27,468 nucleotides of DNA from Gammaproteobacteria bacterium (GCA_004356415.1 SMWN01000012.1:1-27468), one strand, 5' to 3'; shown: positions 27 through 27,468, counted from the stretch's first letter. Numbers and translations: made by a program. Notes: generated from the sequence alone by a model not told the origin.

Positions 27-113
27 GCCGAGGTGGCGGAATTGGTAGACGCGCTAGCTTCAGGTGCTAGTATGGGTAACCATGTGGAGGTTCAAGTCCT
101 CTTCTCGGCACCA
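27..113 (+). tRNA. tRNA-Leu (anticodon CAG)
   Basis: Cloverleaf: acceptor GCCGAGG/TCTCGGC, D-loop AATTGGTAGAC, anticodon stem CTAGC/GCTAG with loop TT-CAG-GT (CAG at 61-63), long variable arm ATGG-GTAA-CCAT, T-loop TTCAAGT, encoded CCA at 111-113. Confidence 0.97.
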
Positions 114-11246: not shown

Positions 11247-11696
11247 TCAAAAAGAACGGATAATATCTTTTCCTGAAGGAGTTTTGGCCTCTAATAACAC
11301 TTTTCTCTGATCGGCCTGATACTGAATATGAATATGAATATCCGGCGTACCCAGGAATGCTGCACCATTTTCTGGCCATTCCACCAGGCATATGCCTTCC
11401 CCGGTAAAGTAATCACGAATGCCGAGTGATTCGAGTTCTTCCGGATCATTGAGCCGATAAAGGTCAAAATGGAATATCTCCAGATGATTGATCTGGTAGG
11501 GTTCAACAAGCGTATAGGTTGGGCTTTTAACTATCCCCTGATATCCGAGTCCATTTAGAAAACCTCTGATCAGTGTTGTCTTACCCGCCCCAAGCTCTCC
11601 CTGCAGGAACAACTTGCTCCCGGGATGACAGAAACTGGCCAATTTCCGGCCAAGTGCCTCCATGGCAGACGCATCAATAACATCAAGCTGACACAT
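11247..11696 (-). CDS. tsaE: tRNA threonylcarbamoyladenosine biosynthesis ATPase
   Basis: GELGAGKTT, VKSPTYTLVEPY, HFDLYRL, LVEWP. Confidence 0.98.
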   Translation of the reverse strand: MCQLDVIDASAMEALGRKLASFCHPGSKLFLQGELGAGKTTLIRGFLNGLGYQGIVKSPTYTLVEPYQINHLEIFHFDLYRLNDPEELESLGIRDYFTGEGICLVEWPENGAAFLGTPDIHIHIQYQADQRKVLLEAKTPSGKDIIRSF

Positions 11697-11798
11697 TGGG
11701 CACCTCTGTTAATTCTGGGTAAGATATATTGAGATTCAAAATATTCAAGCACCATGCACAATATATAATGCTCTCATGCTTGGCACCAGAGTAAGGCG

Positions 11799-11871
11799 CT
11801 AAGTGATTGTAATAGTTATTCTATTGCAATTACTTAGTAACGCGACTATTGGAGTTTTTTGGACTCAATAG
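11799..11871. repeat. Two adjacent inverted repeats in the nnr-tsaE spacer
   Basis: 17-bp arms at 11799-11815 and 11821-11837 (15 Watson-Crick plus 2 G-U pairs on +). Second stem CTATTG(G)AGT/ACTCAATAG at 11846-11871. Confidence 0.75.
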
Positions 11872-11884
11872 ACTTGTCCATGGG

Positions 11885-13399
11885 TTAAGAGGGGTGCCCA
11901 CTAACTAATCGTCGTATCCATGGCATTAAGTCGCTGGCTAACAAACCGCGTTCACCATCAACTGCGGCATTATCTGCGGCAGCTGCATGAATGCATACGC
12001 CCAATCGAGCAGCATCTCCTTTTTCAAGTCCCTGTGCAGATAAACCCGCAATAATGCCTGTCAGGACATCACCCATACCCCCACTAGCCATCCCAGGGTT
12101 ACCTTCTGAACAAATTGAGATGTTTCCTTCGTCGTCAGCAATAATACTGCCACTGCCTTTCAGCACGACAATACCGCCATATTTTTTCTGGATTTCACTG
12201 GCAGCAGAAACACGATCTGATTGAATATCGCGGGGTTCACAATTTAACAGTCGTGCTGCTTCACCCGGATGAGGTGTCAGTATCCAGCGATCAGAAGAGA
12301 CAGGTTCTCGCGCAAGTATATTCAGGGCATCTGCATCAACGACCAATGGCAATTTCCCCTCCAACACCTTGGAAAATAACGAAGACCCCCAGGTAGATTG
12401 ACCAAGCCCCGGCCCAATGGCCACGACACTGGCCTTTCCCAGAAGTGGTTTGATTTCGATCGAGTTTTCAATCGAATGAGCCATAATTTCCGGGACCCCC
12501 ATGGTGATCAATGCGGCATGATTCGCATGGGTGGCGAGACTGACTAATCCTGCACCGGTTCTCGCTGCAGCTTCAGCACTCAACCGTGCTGCGCCAGCAA
12601 AACCTTGATCTCCACCAACTACAAGTACATGCCCATAGTTTCCCTTGTGTGAAGATTTCGATCTTGGTTTTAATAAAGATTGCAGATCATCTAATGTAAT
12701 TCGTTTTGTCATAGATACAATTTTTGTCAGTACCCCATCGGGTACATCCAGCTTGTCAAAATGGACATCTCCAGCATATTCCACACCTTGCCCAGTAAAC
12801 AAGCCTTGTTTAAGGCCAATAAATGTCATTGTGGCCTTTGCATGAACAGCACACCCCATGACCCTGCCCGTATCGGCATTGAGACCGGAAGGGATATCAA
12901 GGGATAAAACAGGTATATCACAACGATTAATAGTATTGATGACCTCTTGCCATTGACCAGTGACTTCCCTGTCCAGACCGGTACCGAGAAGCGCATCGAC
13001 AATGACATCACAGTCATTCAGTTTTCCCCCAAAATCATGACCAAAAGCATATTGCACAGGTTCCAGACCACTGGTAATACATCTTTCTGCAGCCTGTAAG
13101 GCATCACCTGATAATTTTTCGTGATTCCCCACTTGGTGTAGTTTGACGAGGAGATCATCCTCATTGGCAAGCCGTGCCAATATATAACCATCACCCCCGT
13201 TGTTGCCTGGACCGCAGAGCACGTGAATACATTTTGCGTCAGGCCATTTTGAACGCATTAATTGATAGGCCGATGCACCCGCATTTTCCATTAAGGTCAT
13301 ACTGGGAATGGAAAATTCCTCGATGGCAATACGATCCAGCTCTCTAACCTGTGCCGAGAGATAAAGTGTCTTCGGCAAGGATGTTTTATCTGATGACAT
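11885..13399 (-). CDS. nnr: Bifunctional NAD(P)HX epimerase/dehydratase
   Basis: YjeF_N (CGPGNNGGDG, DALLGTG, DIPSG) fused to a carbohydrate-kinase-like domain (HKGNYG, GPGLG, DADAL, TPHPGEAARL, GGMGDVL). Confidence 0.97.
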   Translation of the reverse strand: MSSDKTSLPKTLYLSAQVRELDRIAIEEFSIPSMTLMENAGASAYQLMRSKWPDAKCIHVLCGPGNNGGDGYILARLANEDDLLVKLHQVGNHEKLSGDALQAAERCITSGLEPVQYAFGHDFGGKLNDCDVIVDALLGTGLDREVTGQWQEVINTINRCDIPVLSLDIPSGLNADTGRVMGCAVHAKATMTFIGLKQGLFTGQGVEYAGDVHFDKLDVPDGVLTKIVSMTKRITLDDLQSLLKPRSKSSHKGNYGHVLVVGGDQGFAGAARLSAEAAARTGAGLVSLATHANHAALITMGVPEIMAHSIENSIEIKPLLGKASVVAIGPGLGQSTWGSSLFSKVLEGKLPLVVDADALNILAREPVSSDRWILTPHPGEAARLLNCEPRDIQSDRVSAASEIQKKYGGIVVLKGSGSIIADDEGNISICSEGNPGMASGGMGDVLTGIIAGLSAQGLEKGDAARLGVCIHAAAADNAAVDGERGLLASDLMPWIRRLVSGHPS

Positions 13400-16260: not shown

Positions 16261-16584
16261 TTAGAAAGGGAACTTCATTCCGGCGGGCAAATCCATTCCT
16301 GCCGTCAAACCTGACATCTTTTCCTGAGTCATACTTTCCACACGACGATTCGCATTGTTTACTGCGGCAGCGATCAAGTCCTCCAGCATATCCTTGTCAT
16401 CACCAATTAGCGTCGGATCGATGGTCACGCTTTTGACATCGTGTCTACCTGTCATGGTGATCTTGACCAGGCCCGCACCTGACTCGCCTGTCACTTCCAT
16501 ATTGGCAATTTCTTCCTGCGCCTTTTGCATATTTTCCTGCATCTGCTGCGCTTGTTTCATTATGTTACTCAAACCACCTTTCAT
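16261..16584 (-). CDS. ybaB: YbaB/EbfC nucleoid-associated protein
   Basis: [25 protein letters not shown]. Sits between dnaX and recR. Confidence 0.97.
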
Positions 16585-16634
16585 TCTATATTCAACCTCA
16601 TTTAAAAAATATTATTTACAGATCTTATCTATAC

Positions 16635-16776
16635 GAGACCTTTGCACGAAATAGATTTTTCGTCAGAGCAAGGCGAAAATGGTCTACAAAAACGGAGTTT
16701 ACACGTAGTAAATGAGTATTTTTAGACCATTTTTTTACGCCGCTATGGCGGAAAAAATGAATTGTGCAACGGTCTC
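16635..16776. mobile_element. MITE-like palindromic element 1 (142 bp)
   Basis: TIRs GAGACCTTTGCAC / GTGCAACGGTCTC (12/13). TATAC direct repeat at 16630-16634 and 16777-16781. Internal perfect 11-bp stem (16676-16686 with 16723-16733). No transposase. Confidence 0.88.
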
Positions 16777-18422
16777 TATACAGGCCTGATAGATTTCTCA
16801 TCCAGTGTCGCACCAAATATTTCTTCTATTGCCTGGACATTGGCGTCCCCTTTTATGGAAGACTCTGCAGTTTGCTGCTTTTCTCTTTCCTCGCGGGCTT
16901 TCTTTTGAGCAGGTGTCTCGGCCTCAGGCTCCTCAACGGTAATCTTGAGCTGAGTCCCTTTGCCAAAAAGTATCTCCAGTGCATTACTCAGTCGTTCCTT
17001 TTGAGTTTGATTTAGAAGATGTTCTTTATCCGGTGACAAAACCAGATGCACCTTCTCCTTACTAAGTTCTTTTAATGTGCAATGCCCGGCCAACTCTTTG
17101 ACTAATCCAACCAGAGCCATTTCATCAATAATAGATTGCCAGTTGACTGTACCTTCAGACTCAGCATTTGGTTGCGTAGTAGTATTGGTTTCAATACTTG
17201 TCACCTTGCTAGTAGCTAGTGGTTTTTCTGCTTGAAAAGAAACATTATCCTTAACTTCACCTGCTCTGGCTTTATTTCCCCTGGCTTGATTTTTCATGGC
17301 ATTATTTGTTGTTCTGCCAGCATCATCTGTACCAGGACTTGCAACTGCCGCAGGTCTAAAAGCCAACATTCTGATAAGTGTCATCTCAAATCCACTACGT
17401 GGATCAGGTGCTACAGGTAAATCTTTTCGTCCCAATATCCCCATTTGATAATACAGCTGAACATCTTCCTGACTGATATGTTGTGATAGTTCTTTAATCG
17501 CTTCATCCTGTTCAACATCATCACTGTTCAAAACCTGGCAGATAGCTATCTTCTGCAAGATTGAGAGTAATTCCACCAGGACCGAATCATAGTCTGGATT
17601 ATGCTCTGCCATATGGTCAGTGCACTGCAGAACAGATTGCGCGTCTCCGGATATCAAAGCCTCCAGTAATTCTTTCAAGTCAAGACTATCGATTGTTCCG
17701 AGCATGACTCTGACTTGTGCCTCCTGCAAATGGCCACCGCCATAGGCAATCGCCTGATCCAGTAAACTCAGTGCATCTCGTAAGCTGCCATCAGCCGACT
17801 TTGCAATCAGTTTTCTTGATACGGCATCACTTTCAATTGATTCCAGTTCGAGAATTTTCTCCAACTGCATATCTATTTGTTCAACGCTTAGATGCTTAAG
17901 ATTAAACTGCAGACAACGTGATAAAATTGTCACCGGGATTTTCTTGGGTTCCGTCGTTGCCAGCAGGAATTTCACGTGGGGAGGTGGCTCTTCCAGGGTC
18001 TTCAATAGTGCATTGAAACTATGACCGGAAAACATGTGAACCTCATCAATCAGATAGACCTTATAACGCCCAACGCTTGGTGCATATTGGACGTTATCCA
18101 TGAGATCACGCGTCTCATCTACCTTGGCCCTTGAAGCTGCATCAACCTCGATCAAGTCAACAAAACGTCCTTCATCGATACTTACGCAAGCAGAGCATTC
18201 ACCACATGGCGTGGAGCTGACCCCTTGCTCACAATTCAGACATTTGGCAAGAATACGTGCAAGTGTCGTTTTGCCTACGCCACGTGTCCCTGTAAATAAA
18301 TAGGCATGATGTAACCGATCGTTATCAAGCGCGTTGGTCAGTGCCTGTAACACATGGCCCTGTCCGACCATGTCTTCAAATGTCTTTGGCCGCCATTTAC
18401 GCGCCAGAACCTGATAACTCAT
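16776..18422 (-). CDS. dnaX: DNA polymerase III subunit tau/gamma
   Basis: YQVLARKWRP, GTRGVGKTT, C4 zinc module, IDEVHM, LKTLEEPP, SRCLQF, GSLRDALSLLDQ, C-terminal tau domain V-like region. Confidence 0.98.
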   Translation of the reverse strand: MSYQVLARKWRPKTFEDMVGQGHVLQALTNALDNDRLHHAYLFTGTRGVGKTTLARILAKCLNCEQGVSSTPCGECSACVSIDEGRFVDLIEVDAASRAKVDETRDLMDNVQYAPSVGRYKVYLIDEVHMFSGHSFNALLKTLEEPPPHVKFLLATTEPKKIPVTILSRCLQFNLKHLSVEQIDMQLEKILELESIESDAVSRKLIAKSADGSLRDALSLLDQAIAYGGGHLQEAQVRVMLGTIDSLDLKELLEALISGDAQSVLQCTDHMAEHNPDYDSVLVELLSILQKIAICQVLNSDDVEQDEAIKELSQHISQEDVQLYYQMGILGRKDLPVAPDPRSGFEMTLIRMLAFRPAAVASPGTDDAGRTTNNAMKNQARGNKARAGEVKDNVSFQAEKPLATSKVTSIETNTTTQPNAESEGTVNWQSIIDEMALVGLVKELAGHCTLKELSKEKVHLVLSPDKEHLLNQTQKERLSNALEILFGKGTQLKITVEEPEAETPAQKKAREEREKQQTAESSIKGDANVQAIEEIFGATLDEKSIRPV

Positions 18423-18571
18423 TTACTTTCTGTTCATCCCGTTGGTGTTTGTCACTGTTTATATCGATGGACAAGCACGGTAGTCAATAGAGCCATATGA
18501 TACATGAGGACAACATAAAGTGTCGCACAGGAATCAGTGTTCGTTCACCGGGAATCCATAAATACAGATAA

Positions 18572-18686
18572 GGCGGCGGCCCACACCCGCCAAGACCCCG
18601 GCACTCGTATCCATTGCTGCCGTTGCTCCCTTCCGGGCCTGGCGGGGTTCACAATTTCACGTCGCGAGGAGACCGGTGGGGCCACC
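18572..18686 (-). ncRNA. ffs: SRP RNA (4.5S)
   Basis: Minus strand has the domain IV signature GAACCCCGCCAGGCCCGGAAGGGAGCAACGG (GGAA tetraloop) inside a long closing stem (GGTGGCCCCACC...GGTGTGGGCCGCC). Upstream of dnaX. Confidence 0.95.
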
Positions 18687-18791
18687 ATAACAATAAATTA
18701 AACAGGAAATTATCAGGGATAATAAACAAATTTATAGTGCATATATAGCTATTCAGTATACGTATAATGACATTACTTGCCATCTTTCAAG

Positions 18792-18932
18792 CTATTGTGC
18801 GCCAATATTCCAAAAGCCTGTTTCTTTCAGGACCATTGCATACGCCTCACTGACCTCTGCCCTCGTGTTCCTTGATGAACTCACGAGGCGGCCCTCCCCT
18901 GGCTGTACCTCAAAGCAGTATTTATCGGCATC
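18792..18932 (-). pseudogene. Possible 3' remnant of a gene truncated at the IS left end
   Basis: 46 stop-free codons (DADKYCFEV...GFWNIGAQ*) running from the IS boundary to a TAG, more GC-rich than the adjacent AT-rich spacer. No homologue recognised. Confidence 0.3.
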
Positions 18933-18997
18933 TTAGTCTTGCCCCGTTTTAGTGGACACATCTAAATTGACCTAGAGTTAGGGTCAGGAGGTGTGTC

Positions 18998-19312
18998 ATG
19001 AGCAGAACAAGGAGATACAAACGGTATAGCCATGAGTTCAAGCGAGAAGCATTAAAACGTGCTGGTGAAGAAGGCACAACTGATAAACAAGTGAGCGCAG
19101 AACTCGGAATTAGTCGTCGTCAGCTAAGGCGATGGCGGGATGAATTCAGATTATCAGGTAATGATGCCTTTCCTGGTCAAGGCCGCAGTCGTGATGAAGA
19201 AATGACCCAACTGAAACGTGAGCTGGCCAAAGTTAAACAGGAACGGGATTTTTCACCCAGAGGGCACCTTGTAACACATGCGGTGGTGTACTTCGCCAAG
19301 GAGTCGGAATGA
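18998..19312 (+). CDS. IS3-family transposase OrfA (HTH)
   Basis: RYSHEFKREA...ELGIS...LRRW HTH, a coiled coil, and a YFAKES end. AGGAGG RBS. ATGA overlap with orfB. Confidence 0.9.
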   Translation: MSRTRRYKRYSHEFKREALKRAGEEGTTDKQVSAELGISRRQLRRWRDEFRLSGNDAFPGQGRSRDEEMTQLKRELAKVKQERDFSPRGHLVTHAVVYFAKESE

Positions 19313-20034
19313 GATACGAATGTATCGACCGACACCGCAAACAGTATCCAGTCCGAGTGATGTGTGGAGCACTTAAAGTCTCTAGAAGCGGATACTATGC
19401 TTGGCGCACAAGACCTGAGAGTGACAGGGGTAATACTGACCGTGCGCTGACCCAAGTGATACGTGGAATACATCGCGACAACAGAGGGGTCTATGGTGCG
19501 CCAAAAATACGAGTAGCACTTAAGGCGCAAGGCTACCGCCATGGACGACATAAAGTTGCATGCTTGATGCGATTAGCCGGCCTAAAAGGTTGTCCACAGC
19601 GACGCTTTAAGGTCACAACACAATCCGATCCAAGCCACCCTGTGGCGAAAAACCTGCTTCAACAGAACTTTACAGCGAAGGCCCCGAACCGTCAGTGGGC
19701 ATCTGATATTACCTATATAGATACACAACAGGGATGGCTTTATCTGGCGGTCGTGATGGATCTATATTCCCGTCGTATTGTTGGCTGGTCAATGGATCGA
19801 TGTATGAGTCGGTATCTGGTTATTGATGCGCACACGATGGCATTAGATTCTCGTATGCCAGAGAGGCAGTTGATTCATCATTCTGATCGAGGCGAACAAT
19901 ATACGAGTGATGACTTTCGCAACCAGCTCGTCAAGCATGGCATTGAATGCTTCTATAATCGTCAACGTATTCATGGTTATATAGGAAATATCAGTCCGGT
20001 AGATTTTGAGAGACAGATAACCGGACTTAACTAG
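19309..20034 (+). pseudogene. IS3-family transposase OrfB (rve/DDE), catalytic Glu segment deleted
   Basis: VSRSGYYAW, YGAPKI, WASDITY (D1) and HHSDRGEQY (D2) are present. HGIEC joins directly to FYNRQRIHG with no SMS...DNA..ESFF segment. Confidence 0.88.
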
Positions 20035-20086
20035 TGGTCCACTTTTTCGGGGCAAAACCAGTTCTATGAACGCTGAAAGGGGACTA

Positions 20087-21451
20087 CTACAATTGACTGA
20101 TTGCATCTGATAGACGGCTGACTGTAATGACTTCCATGCCTTCGATATTGTGTTTAGGTTGATTGGACTTGGGGATAATGGCTTTTTTGAACCCATGTTT
20201 CACGGCTTCATTGAGTCTCTCCAGACCATTCTGAACGGGTCTTATTTCACCCGCAAGACCTACTTCACCAAATACAATTAAATCCTGCGGCATAGGGCTG
20301 TTTTTCAAACTGGATGTGGCCGCCAACAAGATGGCCAGATCGGCCGCTGTTTCAGTAATTCTAATGCCGCCAACCACATTAATAAAAACATCCTGATCAG
20401 AAGTGCTGATACCTGCATGTCGATGTAACACCGCCAACAACATTGACAGACGGTTTTGTTCTAATCCAAGACTGACGCGTCTCGGATTGCCAAGATGGGA
20501 TGTGTCGACCAGAGCCTGTACTTCAACAAGCAGTGGTCTCGTCCCCTCTTTTGTCACCATGATGACGCTACCTGAGACCGGTTTTTCGTGCCTGGATAGA
20601 AATATTGCGGAAGGGTTGCTGACTTCTTTTAATCCTTTATCCGTCATGGCAAATACGCCAAGTTCATTGACTGCACCATAACGATTTTTAATAGATCGAA
20701 TCACACGGTAACGACTGCCACTGTCACCTTCAAAATAAAGTACCGTATCGACCATATGTTCCAGAATACGTGGTCCTGCTAATGCCCCGTCTTTTGTCAC
20801 GTGACCCGACAGCAACACAGTCGTGTTCGTTTGTTTTGCATAACGCACCAATTGCGCTGCTGACTCCCTGACCTGCGCCACTGAACCAGGAGCAGACTGT
20901 AGCATCTCTGTGTAGACAGTCTGGATGGAGTCTATCACCATGACTTCAGGGCGCTCAGAACTGGCGACTGATAAAATTCTTTCCAGATTGGTTTCTGTCA
21001 GTAACCTGATTTTATCCAGGGCAAGATCCAGACGTCTACCACGAAGACTGATTTGCTGTGCTGATTCTTCACCGGAAACATAAAGTGTTTTCACACCTTC
21101 TTGTCCAAGGTCAGAAAGCATCTGGATCAATAATGTTGATTTACCGATTCCAGGATCACCACCGATTAATGTGACTGACCCGGTTGCCAAGCCACCCCCC
21201 ACTGCTCGATCAAGCTCAGCCATCCCGGTAGTTAATCTGGAAGATTGCTCCGCATCGACAGTATCCAGAAAAGATACCTCTGCAGGGGCTGCTATATGGT
21301 CTCGGATTCGAAATGATTTAACATTCGATGTTGCTTCGACAACTACCTCTATCAGTGTATTCCATGCATGACATTCGTTACATTGCCCCGCCCATTTAGG
21401 CAGGGTGGCACCGCATTCATCGCATTGATATTGGACTTTAGGCTTCGCCAT
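20087..21451 (-). CDS. radA: DNA repair protein RadA/Sms
   Basis: CDECG...CNEC zinc finger, GGDPGIGKST, YVSGEES, GPRILEHMVD, KNRYG, Lon-like GEVGLAGEIR. Start at ATG 21451 (ORF track starts at 21457). Confidence 0.98.
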   Translation of the reverse strand: MAKPKVQYQCDECGATLPKWAGQCNECHAWNTLIEVVVEATSNVKSFRIRDHIAAPAEVSFLDTVDAEQSSRLTTGMAELDRAVGGGLATGSVTLIGGDPGIGKSTLLIQMLSDLGQEGVKTLYVSGEESAQQISLRGRRLDLALDKIRLLTETNLERILSVASSERPEVMVIDSIQTVYTEMLQSAPGSVAQVRESAAQLVRYAKQTNTTVLLSGHVTKDGALAGPRILEHMVDTVLYFEGDSGSRYRVIRSIKNRYGAVNELGVFAMTDKGLKEVSNPSAIFLSRHEKPVSGSVIMVTKEGTRPLLVEVQALVDTSHLGNPRRVSLGLEQNRLSMLLAVLHRHAGISTSDQDVFINVVGGIRITETAADLAILLAATSSLKNSPMPQDLIVFGEVGLAGEIRPVQNGLERLNEAVKHGFKKAIIPKSNQPKHNIEGMEVITVSRLSDAISQL

Positions 21452-22517
21452 ATTCAAACTCTAATCGTTTATGAACGGCACAAAGCATTTCATAGGGAAT
21501 GGTCCCTGCATGTTTGGCAATTTCCTCAACAGGTAATCCCTCTCCCCACAGAACAACCGGATCACCTGTTTTAGCTTGTGGCTGGGAACGCAAATCAACA
21601 GTTAACATATCCATTGATGCACGGCCAATGAGTTCAACCCTTTTTCCATTCACGAGGACAGGTGTGCCTGATTCAGCATGGCGTGGATAACCGTCACCGT
21701 ACCCAGCTGCGACTACGCCCACAGACATGTCTTCCGGACAACGCCACGTCGCCCCATACCCTACTGGCTCTCCTGTCTTCAATGCTTTAACCGTGATTAA
21801 TCTTGATTTAAGTGTCATCACTGGTTTTAATCCTTCTTGTGGACCATTGCTGTTAGCAAATGGGGAGACACCATAAAGCATGATCCCTGGCCGCACCCAA
21901 TCAACGTGGGCATCCGGGAAGGCGAGGATAGCGGCAGAATTTGCAATGGTCTTTTCAAGCGACATATTTTTATTGAACTGACTGAAACAGTTGATCTGTT
22001 CACTTGTCATCGGGTCTTCACGATTATTGGCACTGGCGAGGTGTGTCATCAAACGGATCTCCTTTACACAGGGAAATTGTTCCAGCCTTGCAAGCACGTC
22101 GCTAGCTAGGTCCGGTGAAAATCCAAGACGATGCATGCCTGTATCCAACTTCAACCATATGCAAACGGGTTTGATTAGCTGGTTTTGATCAAGCATTTCA
22201 ACTTGTGAAAGGTCATGCACGACCATGTCTATTCCTAATTGGCTGATCTCTGACAACTCATCTCCAGAATAGGGACCTTCAAGAAGGATGATGCGTTGTT
22301 GAATCTCTGCTTGGCGTAATTCTCTGGCTTCTTCCAGGCAGGCGACGCCAAAGGCATCTGCATGCTCAAGACATTGCGCAATACGAACCAGGCCATGCCC
22401 ATACGCATCCGCCTTGACGATGGCCATGACTCGAGAATTAGGTGCTAATGTGCGGATACGACTGAAATTATGACGAAGTGCGGGAAGATTAATGACAACC
22501 TTTGCAGGTCGGCTCAT
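21438..22517 (-). CDS. alr: Alanine racemase
   Basis: AIVKADAYGHG (PLP Lys), KLDTGMHRLG, VRPGIMLYG, GYGDGYPR, SMDM, TIPYE. Confidence 0.98.
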   Translation of the reverse strand: MSRPAKVVINLPALRHNFSRIRTLAPNSRVMAIVKADAYGHGLVRIAQCLEHADAFGVACLEEARELRQAEIQQRIILLEGPYSGDELSEISQLGIDMVVHDLSQVEMLDQNQLIKPVCIWLKLDTGMHRLGFSPDLASDVLARLEQFPCVKEIRLMTHLASANNREDPMTSEQINCFSQFNKNMSLEKTIANSAAILAFPDAHVDWVRPGIMLYGVSPFANSNGPQEGLKPVMTLKSRLITVKALKTGEPVGYGATWRCPEDMSVGVVAAGYGDGYPRHAESGTPVLVNGKRVELIGRASMDMLTVDLRSQPQAKTGDPVVLWGEGLPVEEIAKHAGTIPYEMLCAVHKRLEFEYGEA

Positions 22518-23953
22518 TCATATCCTCCGTGATCAAATCCTCCACCAGCGAAGTCTCCACCTGGTATAGGGAAATTACTGTCCGGAATATAATTTTCGAA
22601 TTTGGTGTACTGTCCCAAAAACGTCAGTAAAAAATCGCCAATGGGTCCATTACGTTGCTTGGCGATGATGATCTCGGCTTTGCCTTTGTCCACAGTGTCT
22701 TTGTCGTAAACTTCTTCCCGATAGATAAACACAATCAAATCAGCATCCTGTTCTATCGCACCACTCTCACGAAGATCGGACATCACCGGACGTTTGTTTG
22801 TCCGTTGTTCAAGACTTCTGTTGAGTTGTGATATGGCAATGACAGGCACATTCAATTCTTTTGCCATGGCTTTGAGTGAACGGGAGATCTCGGATATCTC
22901 TGTCGCGCGGTTTTCACTGTTGCCCGCAACTTGCATCAACTGTAGATAATCGACAATGACCAAATCAAGACCACCACGTTCTCTGTATATTCGACGGCAG
23001 CGTGCCCTGATTTCAGACGGTGTCAAAGCAGGTGTATCGTCAACAAACAGACGCGCATCTTTCAGAATCTCAACGGCAGATGTTAGCCTGGGCCAGTCTT
23101 CATCCTTAAGTTTGCCGGTGCGAATCTTTTGTTGATTTATCCTTCCCAATGAAGACATCATACGCATTGCCAGGGAACTTCCCGGCATTTCCATACTGAA
23201 TATGATAACTGCAAGTTTATCCTTGATCACAGCATGCTCAGCAATATTGATTGCCAGGGCTGTTTTACCCATGGAGGGTCTGCCCGCGATGATGATCAGA
23301 TCAGAGGGCTGCAAACCGGCTGTTAAATCATCAAATTTATCAAAACCTGTGGCAACACCTGTGATATGACTATCTCGGCGGAAGAGTTCATCAATCTTGT
23401 CCAGTGCATTGACCAGCAGATCCTTGATGGTATCGTAAGTTCTACGGCCCTTTGATTCTCTTTCAGCGATCTCAAATACTACTTGCTCAGCTTGATCCAG
23501 AATCTGTTCATTGCTAAGTCCCTGGGGATTGAAGACATTTTCACTAATCTTATTGGTTGCTTGAACAAGCTGTCTGAGAACGGAACGTTTTCTGACAATA
23601 TCGGCATAGGCTTTAATGTTACTGACGCCGGGGGTTTTTTCTGCGAGTGCAGCGAGGTATGTTAACCCCCCAGCATCATCGAGCTGCTGATGATTTTCTA
23701 ACCATTCTGCAATCGTCACGACATCATAGGGTTGACCGTCATCATCAAGAGTTGTCATAGCTCGAAAAATGACACGATGATCCCTGCGATAAAAATCATC
23801 TTCCGAGACTCTTTCAGTGACATGTTCCCACACATCATTATTCAGCAGAACACCACCCAATACTGCCATTTCAGCCTCAATAGAATGCGGCGGGATCTTT
23901 AACGAAGCTGTTTCTGTATCAACAGTTTCAGCTGTATATGAGGTATCCTGCAT
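22514..23953 (-). CDS. dnaB: Replicative DNA helicase (no intein)
   Basis: PPHSIEAE, GRPSMGKT, FSMEM, VDYLQL, SQLNR, SDLRESGAIEQDAD, AKQRNGP. Confidence 0.99.
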   Translation of the reverse strand: MQDTSYTAETVDTETASLKIPPHSIEAEMAVLGGVLLNNDVWEHVTERVSEDDFYRRDHRVIFRAMTTLDDDGQPYDVVTIAEWLENHQQLDDAGGLTYLAALAEKTPGVSNIKAYADIVRKRSVLRQLVQATNKISENVFNPQGLSNEQILDQAEQVVFEIAERESKGRRTYDTIKDLLVNALDKIDELFRRDSHITGVATGFDKFDDLTAGLQPSDLIIIAGRPSMGKTALAINIAEHAVIKDKLAVIIFSMEMPGSSLAMRMMSSLGRINQQKIRTGKLKDEDWPRLTSAVEILKDARLFVDDTPALTPSEIRARCRRIYRERGGLDLVIVDYLQLMQVAGNSENRATEISEISRSLKAMAKELNVPVIAISQLNRSLEQRTNKRPVMSDLRESGAIEQDADLIVFIYREEVYDKDTVDKGKAEIIIAKQRNGPIGDFLLTFLGQYTKFENYIPDSNFPIPGGDFAGGGFDHGGYE

Positions 23954-24074
23954 TCACTCCTCCTGAAGGAGTTTGTGATTGATAATCATGCCAGTATTCC
24001 TGCCCGGAACCCCGCTCAAGGATTATTCAATGAATATTCCAGGACTCTTGGTAGGGAACACTGACGTGTATTCA

Positions 24075-24524
24075 CTATTCTTCAGCGACGACCGTCACTT
24101 TTATCCTGGCACCAACATCAGCATGCAAGTGCGTCACAACTTCAAATTCACCCAATGCCCTGAGTGGGCCTTCTGGTAGTCGCACTTCATTTTTAGTCAA
24201 TTCAACACCTGCTGCTACGACAGCTTCTGCAATATCAGCAGCACTGACAGAACCGAATAGCTTCCCTTCTTCACCTGCCTTTCTTGCCAGCGTAACTTCT
24301 ACTACATTCATTTTTTCTGCGCGTGCCGTTGCCGTACCCAATGCGTCAGCCTGCGCCTTTTCCAACTCGGCACGACGCAACTCGAATTTCTCGACGTTCT
24401 CTGGTGTGGCAGTGACTGCTTTACCGATCGGGATTAAATAATTTCGACCATAACCAGCCTTTACCCTGACTTGATCACCCAGATCACCCAGTTTATTAAT
24501 CTTTTCTAGTAGTATAACTTCCAT
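24075..24524 (-). CDS. rplI: 50S ribosomal protein L9
   Basis: LGDLGD...[19 protein letters not shown]. 149 aa. Confidence 0.99.
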
Positions 24525-24596
24525 CTAACTAACCTCTCTTTCCAAGACACACCATAGCATAATTCTATAGCACAATTCATCGCCTATTCACGCCCG

Positions 24597-25496
24597 TCAT
24601 CCCTCTTTATTCCTATTGATCATCCATGAATCCACCAAACCCAGACAGGCAACCAGCAGGACTGCCTGTGGCACAAGAAGCAGCAAAACATACATCATGA
24701 TTAACCAACCACGGGGCATACTTTTCGCAGCCACGATCCTGTGTACTGATGCGAGTCCCTGAAATAAATACAGCACAATAACAACCACCAGTATGTCCAG
24801 GCCGGCCGAGCCCGGCTGCCCACTACCGGTATATAGCAACCCTATGCCCATCAAAGTCAGGAATATAACAACATTTGGTAGTCTCAGGGCGTAAAATTCT
24901 GTTCTAAAGCCACCCGGATTAAACAGCGCTGATTGCCACCAGCGGGATAAAAATGTGGCGACGACCAGGCTAATTGTCATACCACTCGCCATCATGGCAT
25001 TCATTGCTGGTGCCGCCCGCTCCAGAACCTCCTGGTACTGCTCACCACCACCCTCAGGAAAAGCATTTTTAATCCAGATTTCCATCCATTGCAGCCACCA
25101 GGCGGGGACATCATCTATCAACCAATGCACCATCAGAACATAAGCTGCTGCAATCACACCCGCCGCAAAAACCAGCCAACCCTGTGACTGTGTTATTCTC
25201 AGGACACTGCAACAAATAGCTACGGGGACCCAAATGCCGAGTGCAAATGCCAATGCAACTTGCGGATTGGCACCTGCTAAAGCGACAAAAAGTACCACCG
25301 CCAATAAACAAACAAGCAGCACCTGCATTCCATATGCGGGCCCTTTCCTTAATATAATTAAGCCTGCCGGGACACCACTTAGTAAGTATGAAAGTGCCGG
25401 AAGTGACATTGCAATCGCTGTGAACAGACTGATTACCGTCACTGCTTGCAAGCGTCCAATCAGCATAAAACCACCAAGAGCACGCATGATTTTCAA
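24597..25496 (-). CDS. DUF2232/YybS-like integral membrane protein
   Basis: 299 aa polytopic protein with RWWQSALFNPGGFRTEF and YLFQGLA. Conserved position between rpsR and rplI. Start may be MRAL at 25487. Confidence 0.85.
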   Translation of the reverse strand: MKIMRALGGFMLIGRLQAVTVISLFTAIAMSLPALSYLLSGVPAGLIILRKGPAYGMQVLLVCLLAVVLFVALAGANPQVALAFALGIWVPVAICCSVLRITQSQGWLVFAAGVIAAAYVLMVHWLIDDVPAWWLQWMEIWIKNAFPEGGGEQYQEVLERAAPAMNAMMASGMTISLVVATFLSRWWQSALFNPGGFRTEFYALRLPNVVIFLTLMGIGLLYTGSGQPGSAGLDILVVVIVLYLFQGLASVHRIVAAKSMPRGWLIMMYVLLLLVPQAVLLVACLGLVDSWMINRNKEG

Positions 25497-25573
25497 CTAA
25501 CCTGAGATGTATCTGAGGAAAGGTTCATCAGACACCAAACTCATTGATTCTGGGCTTATCGGTTTAAGTGCTT

Positions 25574-25798
25574 CTAGTGTGAATCGCAATAAGGCATCAA
25601 CGCTAGAAAACGCGCACGCTTGATTGCAGTAACCAATTGTCTCTGGTAGCGCGCTTTGGTACCGGAAATTCTACTCGGAACGATCTTGCCTGTTTCGGTC
25701 AGATAATTCTTCAATGTATTCACGTCCTTATAATCAATTTCCTTGACACCTTCGGCTGTGAATTTGCAAAAACGCTTACGACGAAAATAACGTGACAT
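25574..25798 (-). CDS. rpsR: 30S ribosomal protein S18
   Basis: [33 protein letters not shown]. Confidence 0.99.
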
Positions 25799-25802
25799 TT
25801 TA

Positions 25803-26417
25803 TCAATCCTCCGTTTTTTCAGTAGTTTCTTCGGCAGCGTCCTCTGTTACAGATTCAGCGACTTCAGTGATATCTTCGGAAGCGTCCTCTGTCACCGATT
25901 CAGCGACTTCAGTTACTTCTTCGCTTGCTGCACCAACAACGGGTGCTTCTGCACTTGGGTTCTCTGCTTCTGCCCCGGTTTTTTCTTTCGCCTCAGCCTC
26001 AGTTTTTTCTTCCGCTTCAGACTTGGCTCTTTTTTCTGCCACAACCCTGGCTTTTCCTTCTGCCTCATCTCTCAGTTTCGCAGCAGCCTCTTCTTCTTCT
26101 TTCATTTTCGCCAGTAACGAAGTCTCCGTAACCGCACCATCACGTTTAATTATAAGGTTACGAATAACTGCATCGTTAAATCTGAAGGCACTGTCCAGTT
26201 CTTTCAATGGTTCGGCGCCACATTCGATATTCATCAACACGTAATGTGCCTTGTGAATCTTGTTGATTGGATAGGTTAACTGACGACGACCCCAGTCTTC
26301 AAGACGGTGGATAGCACCACCACTTGATTCGATCATATTACGGTACCGCTCAATCATTGCAGGTACCTGTTCACTTTGATCCGGATGGACCATGAACACA
26401 ACTTCATAATGTCGCAT
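25803..26417 (-). CDS. rpsF: 30S ribosomal protein S6 with ~100-aa acidic extension
   Basis: [39 protein letters not shown]. Start at 26417; 204 aa. Confidence 0.98.
25829..25913. repeat. 45-bp-period tandem duplication in the rpsF tail
   Basis: 25829-25868 vs 25874-25913 match at 37/40 positions and encode [11 protein letters not shown] twice. Confidence 0.92.
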
Positions 26418-26482
26418 TAAGATAATCCTCTTGGTTTTTAGCAGCCCCCTGACTATTTCACAATGGAGCAAGAATTAAAGAA
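26418..26482 (-). promoter_or_regulatory. S6:S18-type autoregulatory leader
   Basis: Minus strand UUCUUG-CUCC...GGGGGC...ACC-AAGAGGA. UCUUG/CAAGA pairing abuts the SD, with an inner GCUCC/GGGGGC stem and a CC bulge. Resembles the gammaproteobacterial rpsF leader as I recall it. Confidence 0.65.
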
Positions 26483-26488
26483 CGCGGG

Positions 26489-26517
26489 ATTCTAGTGGAT
26501 TTGATCAGAATATTCAA
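26489..26517 (-). promoter_or_regulatory. sigma70 promoter of the rpsF operon with GC-rich discriminator
   Basis: TTGAAT-17 nt-TAGAAT followed by CCCGCG. Confidence 0.75.
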
Positions 26518-26543
26518 ATAATGAAAAATACCTTATTGAATTT

Positions 26544-26685
26544 AGAGTGCCCCTACTAATTCGATTTTTTTCGTGGGTGTAAGGAAGCGCCGCGCGCAAG
26601 ACCGCAGTGTATATGCCATACATGAGGATCTGAGCACAGAACTGACGCTGCAATCGCGTAAAAAAGCAGTTAGTAGAGGTGCTCT
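26544..26685. mobile_element. MITE-like palindromic element 2 (~140-142 bp)
   Basis: TIRs AGAGTGCCCCTACTAA / TTAGTAGAGGTGCTCT (13/16 Watson-Crick plus 2 G-U). Inner T-run/A-run pairing and a central hairpin TGTAT-ATGCC-ATACA. Confidence 0.8.
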
Positions 26686-26688
26686 TGA

Positions 26689-27468
26689 CTATGTCCCCGT
26701 CTTTATCCTTGGCACCGCGGCCAATAACCTTTGTGTGTATGAATTTTGCGGGTTAGTCAATACTTCGTCGACTGTCCCCTGCTCAACAATTTTCCCCTGG
26801 TACATTACGGCTACATAGTGTGCCAGATATTCAACCACACTGATATTGTGTGTAATAAACAAATAAGCAAGCCCCATATTTTTCTGCAGATCTTTAAGAA
26901 GCTCAAGAATTTGCGCTTGCACAGAGACATCCAGTGCACTGGTTGGCTCATCACAGACAATCAATTTTGGTTCAACCGCCAGCGCCCTGGCGATACATAT
27001 TCTTTGTCGCTGCCCGCCTGAAAATTCATGTGGATAGCGATTCTTATGACGCGGTTCAAGGCCTACCTTTTCCAGCAACTCATCAACACGCTTCATTCGT
27101 TGTTGTCTGGAATCACCAATCCCCTGCGCTACCATACCTTCAGCGATGACATCCCCTATCATCATACGCGGGTTCATTGATGAGTAAGGGTCCTGAAATA
27201 TAATTTGAATATCAGAACGTTTTTGCCTCAACGCTTTACCTTTTAATTGTGTGAGTTCCTGACCATCAAAAACAACGCTACCGTCTGTTGCGTGTAATAA
27301 TTGTAAAATGCCCTTACCCATGGTGGTTTTTCCTGAACCAGACTCACCTACGATCGCAAGTGTTTGTCCACTATATATATCAATAGACACGCCATCTACC
27401 GCACGTACATAACCCACCGTTTTTTTCAAAAATCCTTTTTTTATCGGGAAATGTACTTTGAGATCGCG
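26689..27468 (-). CDS. Dipeptide/oligopeptide ABC transporter ATP-binding protein (5'-partial)
   Basis: GESGSGKTT, IFQDPYSSMNPR, FSGGQRQRI, CDEPTSALD, ITHN. The frame stays open to the window edge (RDLKVHFPIKKGFL...). Confidence 0.95.
   Translation of the reverse strand, partial: RDLKVHFPIKKGFLKKTVGYVRAVDGVSIDIYSGQTLAIVGESGSGKTTMGKGILQLLHATDGSVVFDGQELTQLKGKALRQKRSDIQIIFQDPYSSMNPRMMIGDVIAEGMVAQGIGDSRQQRMKRVDELLEKVGLEPRHKNRYPHEFSGGQRQRICIARALAVEPKLIVCDEPTSALDVSVQAQILELLKDLQKNMGLAYLFITHNISVVEYLAHYVAVMYQGKIVEQGTVDEVLTNPQNSYTQRLLAAVPRIKTGT

Follow-up and report, generated by a model that had tools for sequence, protein, structure and literature searches.

Two palindromic insertions at gene ends

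Two palindromic elements of about 140 nt, here named E1 (16635-16776) and E2 (26545-26684), lie in a 27,468-nt stretch of DNA from a Gammaproteobacteria bacterium (GCA_004356415.1, SMWN01000012.1:1-27468), which we analysed as a whole and call the window below. The window corresponds to contig C152 in a metagenome-assembled genome (MAG) of 1.3 Mb and 157 contigs, 64% complete and with 43% GC. The MAG falls in Pseudomonadota, and the named relatives with the same elements point to Gammaproteobacteria as its class; this genome is labelled G000, the congeneric species compared with it G002-G010, and individual loci carry L numbers. Read on the plus strand, E1 is a 142-nt MITE (miniature inverted-repeat transposable element) of the GAGACCTTTGCACGA end type with an intact long hairpin, and E2 a 140-nt MITE of the GGGTGCC/GAGTGCC...CTAWTAAT end type, older and with a decayed middle stem. 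E1 is inserted in the stop codon of dnaX (DNA polymerase III gamma/tau; 16776-18422, minus strand), with a ybaB-like gene (16261-16584, minus strand) downstream of it in a dnaX-ybaB-recR arrangement, while E2 with its target duplication ends at the stop codon (TAG, 26689-26691) of a minus-strand ABC-F-type gene. A first-pass annotation, made from the sequence alone, had rightly placed both elements against minus-strand stops and had suggested that they share a covarying core that itself does something.

The terminal inverted repeats (TIRs), read directly, measure 13-15 nt in E1 (GAGACCTTTGCAC.../...GTGCAACGGTCTC) and 15-16 nt in E2 (GAGTGCCCCTACTAA.../...TTAGTAGAGGTGCTC), and both are also present in sister copies. 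The bounds first given for E1 stand; those for E2 (26544 and 26685) fall in the flanking duplication TTTA/TTGA, and 26545-26684 is the better choice. Folded as DNA, E1 has a z score of -7.6 on either strand and makes a nearly perfect hairpin; E2 gives z scores of -2.1 and -0.6, its middle stem being unpaired as in a decayed copy.

Comparison of the dnaX-ybaB gap with that of ten other congeneric species found E1 in its own genome, G003 and G007, and clean empty sites in G009, G002, G005 and G006. The TATAC that flanks E1 on both sides (16630-16634 and 16777-16781) is single in three of these empty sites (G009, G002 and G005), where it can be read. The right-hand copy, together with base 16776, makes the minus-strand dnaX stop TAG: the final base of E1 fills the third position of this codon, so that the element supplies the G. 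Since the minus-strand end of dnaX reads GTA TAA in empty sites and GTA TAG in the occupied one, the insertion split the stop codon and turned TAA into TAG. At the exact E1 site, two TATAC-like words enclose 8 nt (GAGACCTC) in G008 (L215) and 10 nt in G004 (L222), remnants that resemble footprints of excision or deletion. G010 (L221) carries an unrelated hairpin element of about 190 nt at the same dnaX-ybaB spot, and the dnaX stop codon seems, to judge from these sites, to be an insertion hot spot.

E2 is occupied only in its own genome and G003. The empty site in G008 reads ...CATTTACTA with a single TTTA, which gives a 4-bp duplication: TTTA on the left (26541-26544) and, with one substitution, TTGA on the right (26685-26688), the latter abutting the stop codon. 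Other E1-type copies are flanked by 5-bp duplications (AACTT twice, TATGA, TATTA and TATAA). E1-type copies are 92-98% identical across the own genome and sister species while the adjacent coding DNA is far more diverged, and the G007 copy at the dnaX site is nearer to another G007 copy than to E1, so the E1 subfamily has been active recently. E1 and E2 are true MITE insertions: they have TIRs and target duplications that can be set against empty sites, and both are small, non-coding, dispersed and multicopy.

A structured core shared by elements with different ends

E1 and E2 share more than their core. Their global alignment has 87 identical positions of about 140 (z = 6.4), a score reached by none of 1000 dinucleotide shuffles; E1 against the reverse complement of E2 scores 0, and the colinearity is therefore orientation-specific. 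With E1 as sole query, nhmmer reaches an E2-family copy in the own genome (contig C84, E 1e-3), and a single core hidden Markov model (HMM) and a single covariance model (CM) each recover both elements. The landmarks noted at first pass are all present and colinear in elements of near-equal length (142 versus 140 nt), with 24-nt cores starting at 16693 and 26603, and the differences are indeed found mostly in the terminal 15 nt or so and the middle stem. The description of two different MITE families holds for their ends and fails if it is taken to mean unrelated families: because homology spans about 110 of 140 nt, sequence comparison places E1 and E2 as diverged members of one superfamily, not as unrelated MITEs that captured a module.

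The shared core measures about 80 nt. A CM (R1), built from an alignment of eleven core copies of the own genome, scores 81.2 bits (E 8e-20) on the E1 module (16664-16746, plus strand) and 76.7 bits (E 1.6e-18) on that of E2 (26575-26654, plus strand), which is of the AGAACCGCAG...GAGGAT...GAGCAC variant; its 17 matches in the own MAG represent 16 loci (one is a duplicate contig end), all in one register. In E1 the module runs from CAAGGCG through a covarying stem, an NCG-N-AG internal loop, a 6-pair hairpin closed by G·T, TGAG and a stem to ACGC. Within its 24-nt core (16693-16716, plus strand), G16697·T16713 closes the hairpin, TTTAC (16698-16702) pairs with GTAAA (16708-16712) and the loop occupies 16703-16707. 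The central 5-bp hairpin of E2, TGTAT/ATACA, differs by two compensatory pairs (T-A to G-C and C-G to T-A), as had been observed. In R1 the 5' arm consists, in order, of CAAGGC, a variable stem, a tandem GA/GA mismatch and an A/T helix with a bulged A; further inward come a covarying N-N' pair, a C-G pair and an internal loop of GNA opposite GA, then the 6-pair hairpin closed by G·T, from which the other strand returns down to CAACGC.

The pairing of this core was examined in 28 and 29 core sequences from relatives, the 29 being drawn from 27 families. In these alignments, which were fitted to the CM, 94-95% of cells are paired, versus 30-43% when the partners are slid by 1-3 columns; double-sided changes occur at 14-15 of 20 pairs, and the observed covariation score was never attained by shuffles. 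Stem positions have changed to saturation between subfamilies, a single one showing up to 3-5 pair types. All 29 sequences keep G35·T52, and C31-G55, T38-A49, A39-T48 and several loop bases are likewise invariant. The CM analysis, begun on copies of the own genome and extended to relatives, hence bears out the claim that MITEs with different termini have a structured, covarying core in common.

This core is widespread. Of 24 other genomes in the family, 19 had R1 matches, as did 5 of the 16 other families of a first sample; in a scan of the class (one genome per family, threshold E<=1e-4, at most 30 candidates scored per genome), 72 of 150 other families had a match, a tally that includes the unpublished genome G063 and becomes 71 of 149 without it (no other claim depends on G063). 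Relatives gave 1-30 scored matches per genome. An exact core 30-mer occurs in >120 contigs; among the matches listed are assemblies of Nitrosomonadales, Gallionella, Thiohalomonadaceae, Marinospirillum, Halomonas/Vreelandella, Pseudomonas, Cellvibrio, Thiotrichales, Endozoicomonas and Moraxellaceae, and also of Desulfobacterales, Desulfuromusa, Desulfobulbaceae, Alistipes, Cryomorphaceae and Nodosilinea, some of them labelled Desulfobacterota, Bacteroidota or Cyanobacteria at the phylum level. Core-only matches lie on plasmids of Pseudomonas, Halomonas and Candidatus Fukatsuia; the 30-mer was absent from the viral contigs searched.

The ends vary around this centre. Sorted by their ends, about 166 copies fall into five or more end types, with element lengths of 135-143 nt throughout: (i), CAGCCTGTTGAAAAACG, with a 4-bp YTAR target duplication (CTAG, TTAA, TTAG) as in IS5-group elements; (ii), GGAACCTCTGAAAAATG and (iii), TCTTACTGTGTCAC, likewise with 4-bp YTAR duplications; (iv), GGGTGCCTCTAWWAATT, the E2 type, with a 4-bp AT-rich duplication; and (v), GAGACCTTTGCACGA, the E1 type, with a 5-bp duplication. 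Homology also covers the arms that link ends and core in E1, E2 and several other subfamilies, so that descent with replacement of the terminal 15 nt or so explains most of the pattern, along with some exchange at the junctions. A third MITE in the window (11698-11899, plus strand, 202 nt) has the E2 end type (GGGCACCTCTGTTAAT...) and AAGGCG...AACGC junctions around a different centre. It fills the entire gap between two minus-strand genes, beginning 1 nt after the ATG of the open reading frame (ORF) 11247-11696 and providing the TAA stop of ORF 11885-13399; its family of about 200 nt has sister copies on contigs C119, C46, C43, C11 and C111 of the own genome. Long variants of about 210 nt carry an extra hairpin of about 70 nt (...GGCCCGAAGGG...) beside the core (G000 contigs C51, 825-1033; C33, 4101-4309; C115, 4034-4245), and a similar extra hairpin is found in unrelated taxa (L090, L097, L186, L127 and L138); by its sequence and distribution it may be a second exchangeable module.

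The E2-type end was confined to the genus, with no pairs of such ends at the distance expected of an insertion sequence (IS). Two end pairs were considered as a possible parent IS and rejected as a chance match or as a gene with a MITE on either side: one in Marinospirillum, 1.1 kb apart, has ordinary coding DNA between its ends, and another at L139 encloses a hydrolase gene, not a transposase. The latter locus (1461-2710, in a Cellvibrionaceae MAG) has a whole MITE with the core on one side of an alpha/beta-hydrolase gene (BD-FAE/Abhydrolase_3) and on the other a second, partial copy that shares its end, which resembles a composite-transposon arrangement.

What the core may do

MITEs are usually defined by their ends, and their interiors are regarded as junk left from the parent IS. 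The superfamily reverses this view: the ends and the duplication rule vary, and presumably the transposase with them, while the structured centre, its asymmetric loops unchanging, is kept in roughly one half of the families sampled in the class and also outside it. The reading we favour, at somewhat better than even confidence, is that E1 and E2 belong to a widespread mosaic MITE superfamily whose core would be a cis-acting module kept for propagation. The terminal 15 nt or so would match whichever resident transposase moves each subfamily, and hence turn over, while the centre would be kept by selection on the element itself. It would most likely act as a folded module, single-stranded or cruciform, in the form of a long hairpin whose purine-rich internal loops are fixed (GNA opposite GA, tandem GA/GA, CAAGGC opposite CAACGC, and the invariant G·T). 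Either a conserved factor, of the host or of transposition, would bind this module, or the module would draw together the two ends of a very short element. The stems would then drift by compensatory change because pairing alone matters, and the loops would stay static because their sequence matters; siting at stop codons would follow from AT-rich, TA-containing targets and selection against insertions inside genes.

Several points weigh against this proposal. The core alignments were fitted to the CM and lean towards the model structure. Covariation in a DNA palindrome need not mean selection, since quasi-palindromes can be corrected by template switching; this process would, however, wipe out asymmetries, and their conservation argues against it. 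It is from these conserved asymmetric loops that we argue for selection on the core. E2 persists with its middle stem lost, so that inserted copies are not all maintained. The core has no fixed orientation relative to genes, the mild bias towards antisense (41 versus 26 sense) not indicating the acting strand. Many of the 30-mer records are MAGs, and single cross-phylum records may be mis-binned. Finally, neither a transposase nor a parent IS with ends to match turned up in the own genome, its relatives, the complete Marinospirillum genome or 190 loci, a search limited by the fact that MAGs often lack assembled IS copies. The early suggestion that the core does something is well motivated by its conservation, and it probably does; protein binding, a nuclease target or a mobilisation signal would be candidate actions.

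A bolder version can be put forward tentatively, as a possibility we would hold below even chance: the core of about 45-80 nt could be a portable, strand-asymmetric single-stranded DNA or RNA module, recognised by a conserved factor of the host or of transposition via its fixed GA-rich loops, and could serve as a universal 'chassis' that allows elements of about 140 nt to be moved by several transposases (with 4-bp YTAR, 4-bp AT-rich and 5-bp duplications) and to spread across phyla. If true, bacterial MITEs would possess a cis-acting element that has so far gone unrecognised and of which Escherichia coli K-12 has unannotated copies. If the centre is needed for mobilisation or for binding a host factor, it would explain how the ends of very short elements synapse, would provide a handle to annotate thousands of unlabelled intergenic hairpins, six of them in K-12, and would offer a tractable system for the role of the MITE interior. 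Gene annotation in MAGs is affected in any case: dnaX has gone from TAA to TAG, neighbouring genes are supplied with stops, and a peptide has been added to a polyunsaturated fatty acid (PUFA) synthase.

The position of the copies relative to genes bears on a first alternative, namely that the core is a host-useful RNA module (a stabiliser in the 3' untranslated region, a bidirectional terminator or the seed of a small RNA, sRNA) that MITEs spread and the host selects in place. In a survey of about 150 loci (ORF-based gene calls, flanks normalised to core orientation), convergent gaps were twice as frequent as divergent ones (36 versus 18), as this alternative might predict, and among tandem genes the core was antisense in 41 cases and sense in 26, a lack of fixed orientation to transcription that speaks against it. 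Of 193 stop-facing distances tabulated between stop codon and core, 71 fall in the peak at 20-40 nt, where the element abuts the stop; elements sitting directly after stops would suit an RNA function, although the adjacency also fits TA-rich targets that overlap stops together with selection against insertion within genes. Many subfamilies have an A-run, a GC stem and a T-run on both strands, like bidirectional terminators, and purine-rich GA loops are typical of RNA motifs; however, the E2-type core lacks T-runs, a simple promoter and terminator scan of E1 and E2 (blind to long-loop hairpins) returned nothing, and the window copies would be transcribed as the pyrimidine-loop complement. RNA roles of this kind are not without precedent: ERIC has been reported with RNase E, Correia elements with RNase III, and sRNAs derived from QMITE elements (PMC10969869, PMC5896051). 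The presence or absence of elements among close species and the decay of E2 point the other way, and we judge a host-selected RNA module unlikely.

A second alternative, which we find distinctly unlikely, makes the core a separate small mobile or recombining unit, bounded by CAAGGC...CAACGC and nested in carriers by repeated capture or exchange. The junction words do form a direct, not inverted, repeat in nearly all copies; in the E2-ended third MITE the AAGGCG and AACGC words enclose another hairpin; an extra hairpin stands beside the core in the long variants, in the own genome (C51, C33) and in unrelated taxa; and one end type can be found with different centres as one centre can with different end types. 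Yet homology extends to the arms outside the junctions for E1 and E2 as well as the CAGCCTG and GGAACCT subfamilies, no free-standing core with target duplications of its own was seen, and the equal length of all end types, about 140 nt, fits descent with end replacement better than nesting.

One may also suppose that the core has no function, its sharing being due to common ancestry in a young, spreading MITE lineage and its pairing to palindrome correction. The high cross-species identity of E1-type copies (92-98%), the exact 30-mer in distant taxa, which suggests recent horizontal spread, and the copies on plasmids would all agree with this. It is nevertheless improbable in our view: the stems are saturated with changes (as many as 3-5 pair types at a position) while unpaired loop bases and the G·T remain invariant, and mechanical correction would erase these asymmetries, not preserve them.

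Likeness to known repeats

The least probable alternative, to which we give next to no credence, is that these elements belong to the family of the Rickettsia palindromic element RPE-1 or are closely related to it: size (about 140 nt) and palindromic build are similar, and E2 is indeed open in one plus-strand frame (and likewise in one minus-strand frame), but TIGR01045 (RPE1; cut-off 30 bits) had no match at E<=10 in the six-frame translation of the genome, the E2 open frame or the in-frame sister copy described below, so that the RPE-1 likeness first ascribed to the E2 peptide finds no support. A sample of 400 genomes across the phylum had no RPE1 match, and the sole relative of the E2 peptide in a protein-database search was one unnamed 63-aa ORF. 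The relatives named among the 30-mer matches listed are Gammaproteobacteria, not Rickettsia, and most copies are intergenic, E1 and E2 included. RPE-1 is able to sit in frame and add a peptide, and one sister copy behaves alike, which is a matter of behaviour and not of membership. This copy (G000 contig C79, 767-841, L012; duplicate contig end at C77, 6463-6542) lies in the linker of a PfaB/C-like PUFA synthase whose ORF has AT and FabA-like domains. It inserts the peptide ...RKHRTENRNIQLVHEDSSTELTQRS..., including ...VHEDSSTELT..., which resembles the motif Y..VREDASTGST given for RPE-1 at first pass (TIGR01045 gives no match). The copy is common to G003, a core match lies in the same gene in G008, and five congeneric orthologues lack it.

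A closer likeness is found in E. coli. On the chromosome of strain O157, R1 gives matches of 35.5 bits (E 9e-6) and 24.7 bits plus two partial ones, and nhmmer matches the E. coli repeat with E values of 1e-9 to 7e-6. K-12 MG1655 (NC_000913.3) has six intergenic copies of this palindromic repeat of about 146 nt, with a TIR of its own (2689522-2689667, 1007684-1007823, 2543658-2543776, 1798989-1799129, 192648-192764 and 2746328-2746423), for instance in the glrK-qseG and pyrH-frr gaps; RefSeq has no repeat feature at the two loci inspected (glrK-qseG and ycbX-rlmL). The repeat has the same core variant as E2, AGAACCGGAGCGTAC-loop-GTACGTGAGGATTTCGAGCAC. Its ends (GCCTATCCCA.../...TGGGATAGGC) are unlike those of E1 or E2, and its left junction reads CATGGAC where the E1/E2 superfamily has CAAGG, so it does not belong to the same subfamily. 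The K-12 repeats are probably 'RSA' (BEE95), dispersed enterobacterial elements of intergenic DNA with 152 bp and six copies. RSA exists as a family name, as a citation in PMC3751351 attests.

ERIC/IRU of Enterobacteriaceae and Vibrionaceae, an imperfect palindrome of about 127 nt in transcribed intergenic DNA, is built similarly. Its landmarks (GAAGGCG ... GGAGCTTACA-loop-AGTAAGTGA ... AACGCAG) are alike by eye only, and one superfamily copy (L054) carries an ERIC-type hairpin, GCTTAC/GTAAGT. Homology to ERIC is not demonstrable: nhmmer finds none at E<=10, and a whole-chromosome search with R1 recovers no ERIC copies, a single 344-nt ERIC locus giving a weak match (12.1 bits, E 0.004).

MITEPsy1 is matched in its IS5-type ends and in its 4-bp CTAG/YTAA duplications by sister subfamilies in other taxa, those with GGAACCTCTGAAAAATG and CAGCCTGTTGAAAAACG ends, and a superfamily copy from Pseudomonas has ISPsy19-like ends (GAGGGTGT...). 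MITEPsy1 (ISPsy2, ISPsy19; IS5 family, Pseudomonas syringae) transposes in vivo (PMC3189936), which supports the mobilisation of such elements in trans. MITEPsy1 itself was rejected as a member of the superfamily: it is 100 nt long, has no core by reading and gives no R1 match on its plasmid (E<=1). Unlike it, E1 (GAGACC..., 5 bp) and E2 (GAGTGCC..., TTTA) lack the IS5-type GGAAGG/GGAACC...CTGAAAAA ends and the CTAG/YTAA duplication. QMITE1 and QMITE2 of Coxiella burnetii are hairpin MITEs at gene 3' ends that overlap stop codons by a few bases; QMITE1 measures 300-400 bp, and QMITE2 150-190 bp, its duplications being 7-11 nt long and its REP tip GTAG (PMC5896051). Compared by description only, they are like E1 and E2 in this siting, and are larger with other duplications. 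A literature search on dispersed enterobacterial repeats, RPE and IS5-type MITEs with a conserved centre returned no description of the superfamily.

In Rfam, no family reached its gathering score at the elements, and a permissive scan of five element loci gave no match there either. A hairpin-rich insert after tRNA-Leu (114-238) has no core motif by eye and no core HMM or CM match, and is not a member of the superfamily. The only Rfam matches in the window are a bacterial small signal recognition particle RNA (18581-18678, minus strand, 63.7 bits) and a tRNA (27-110, plus strand).

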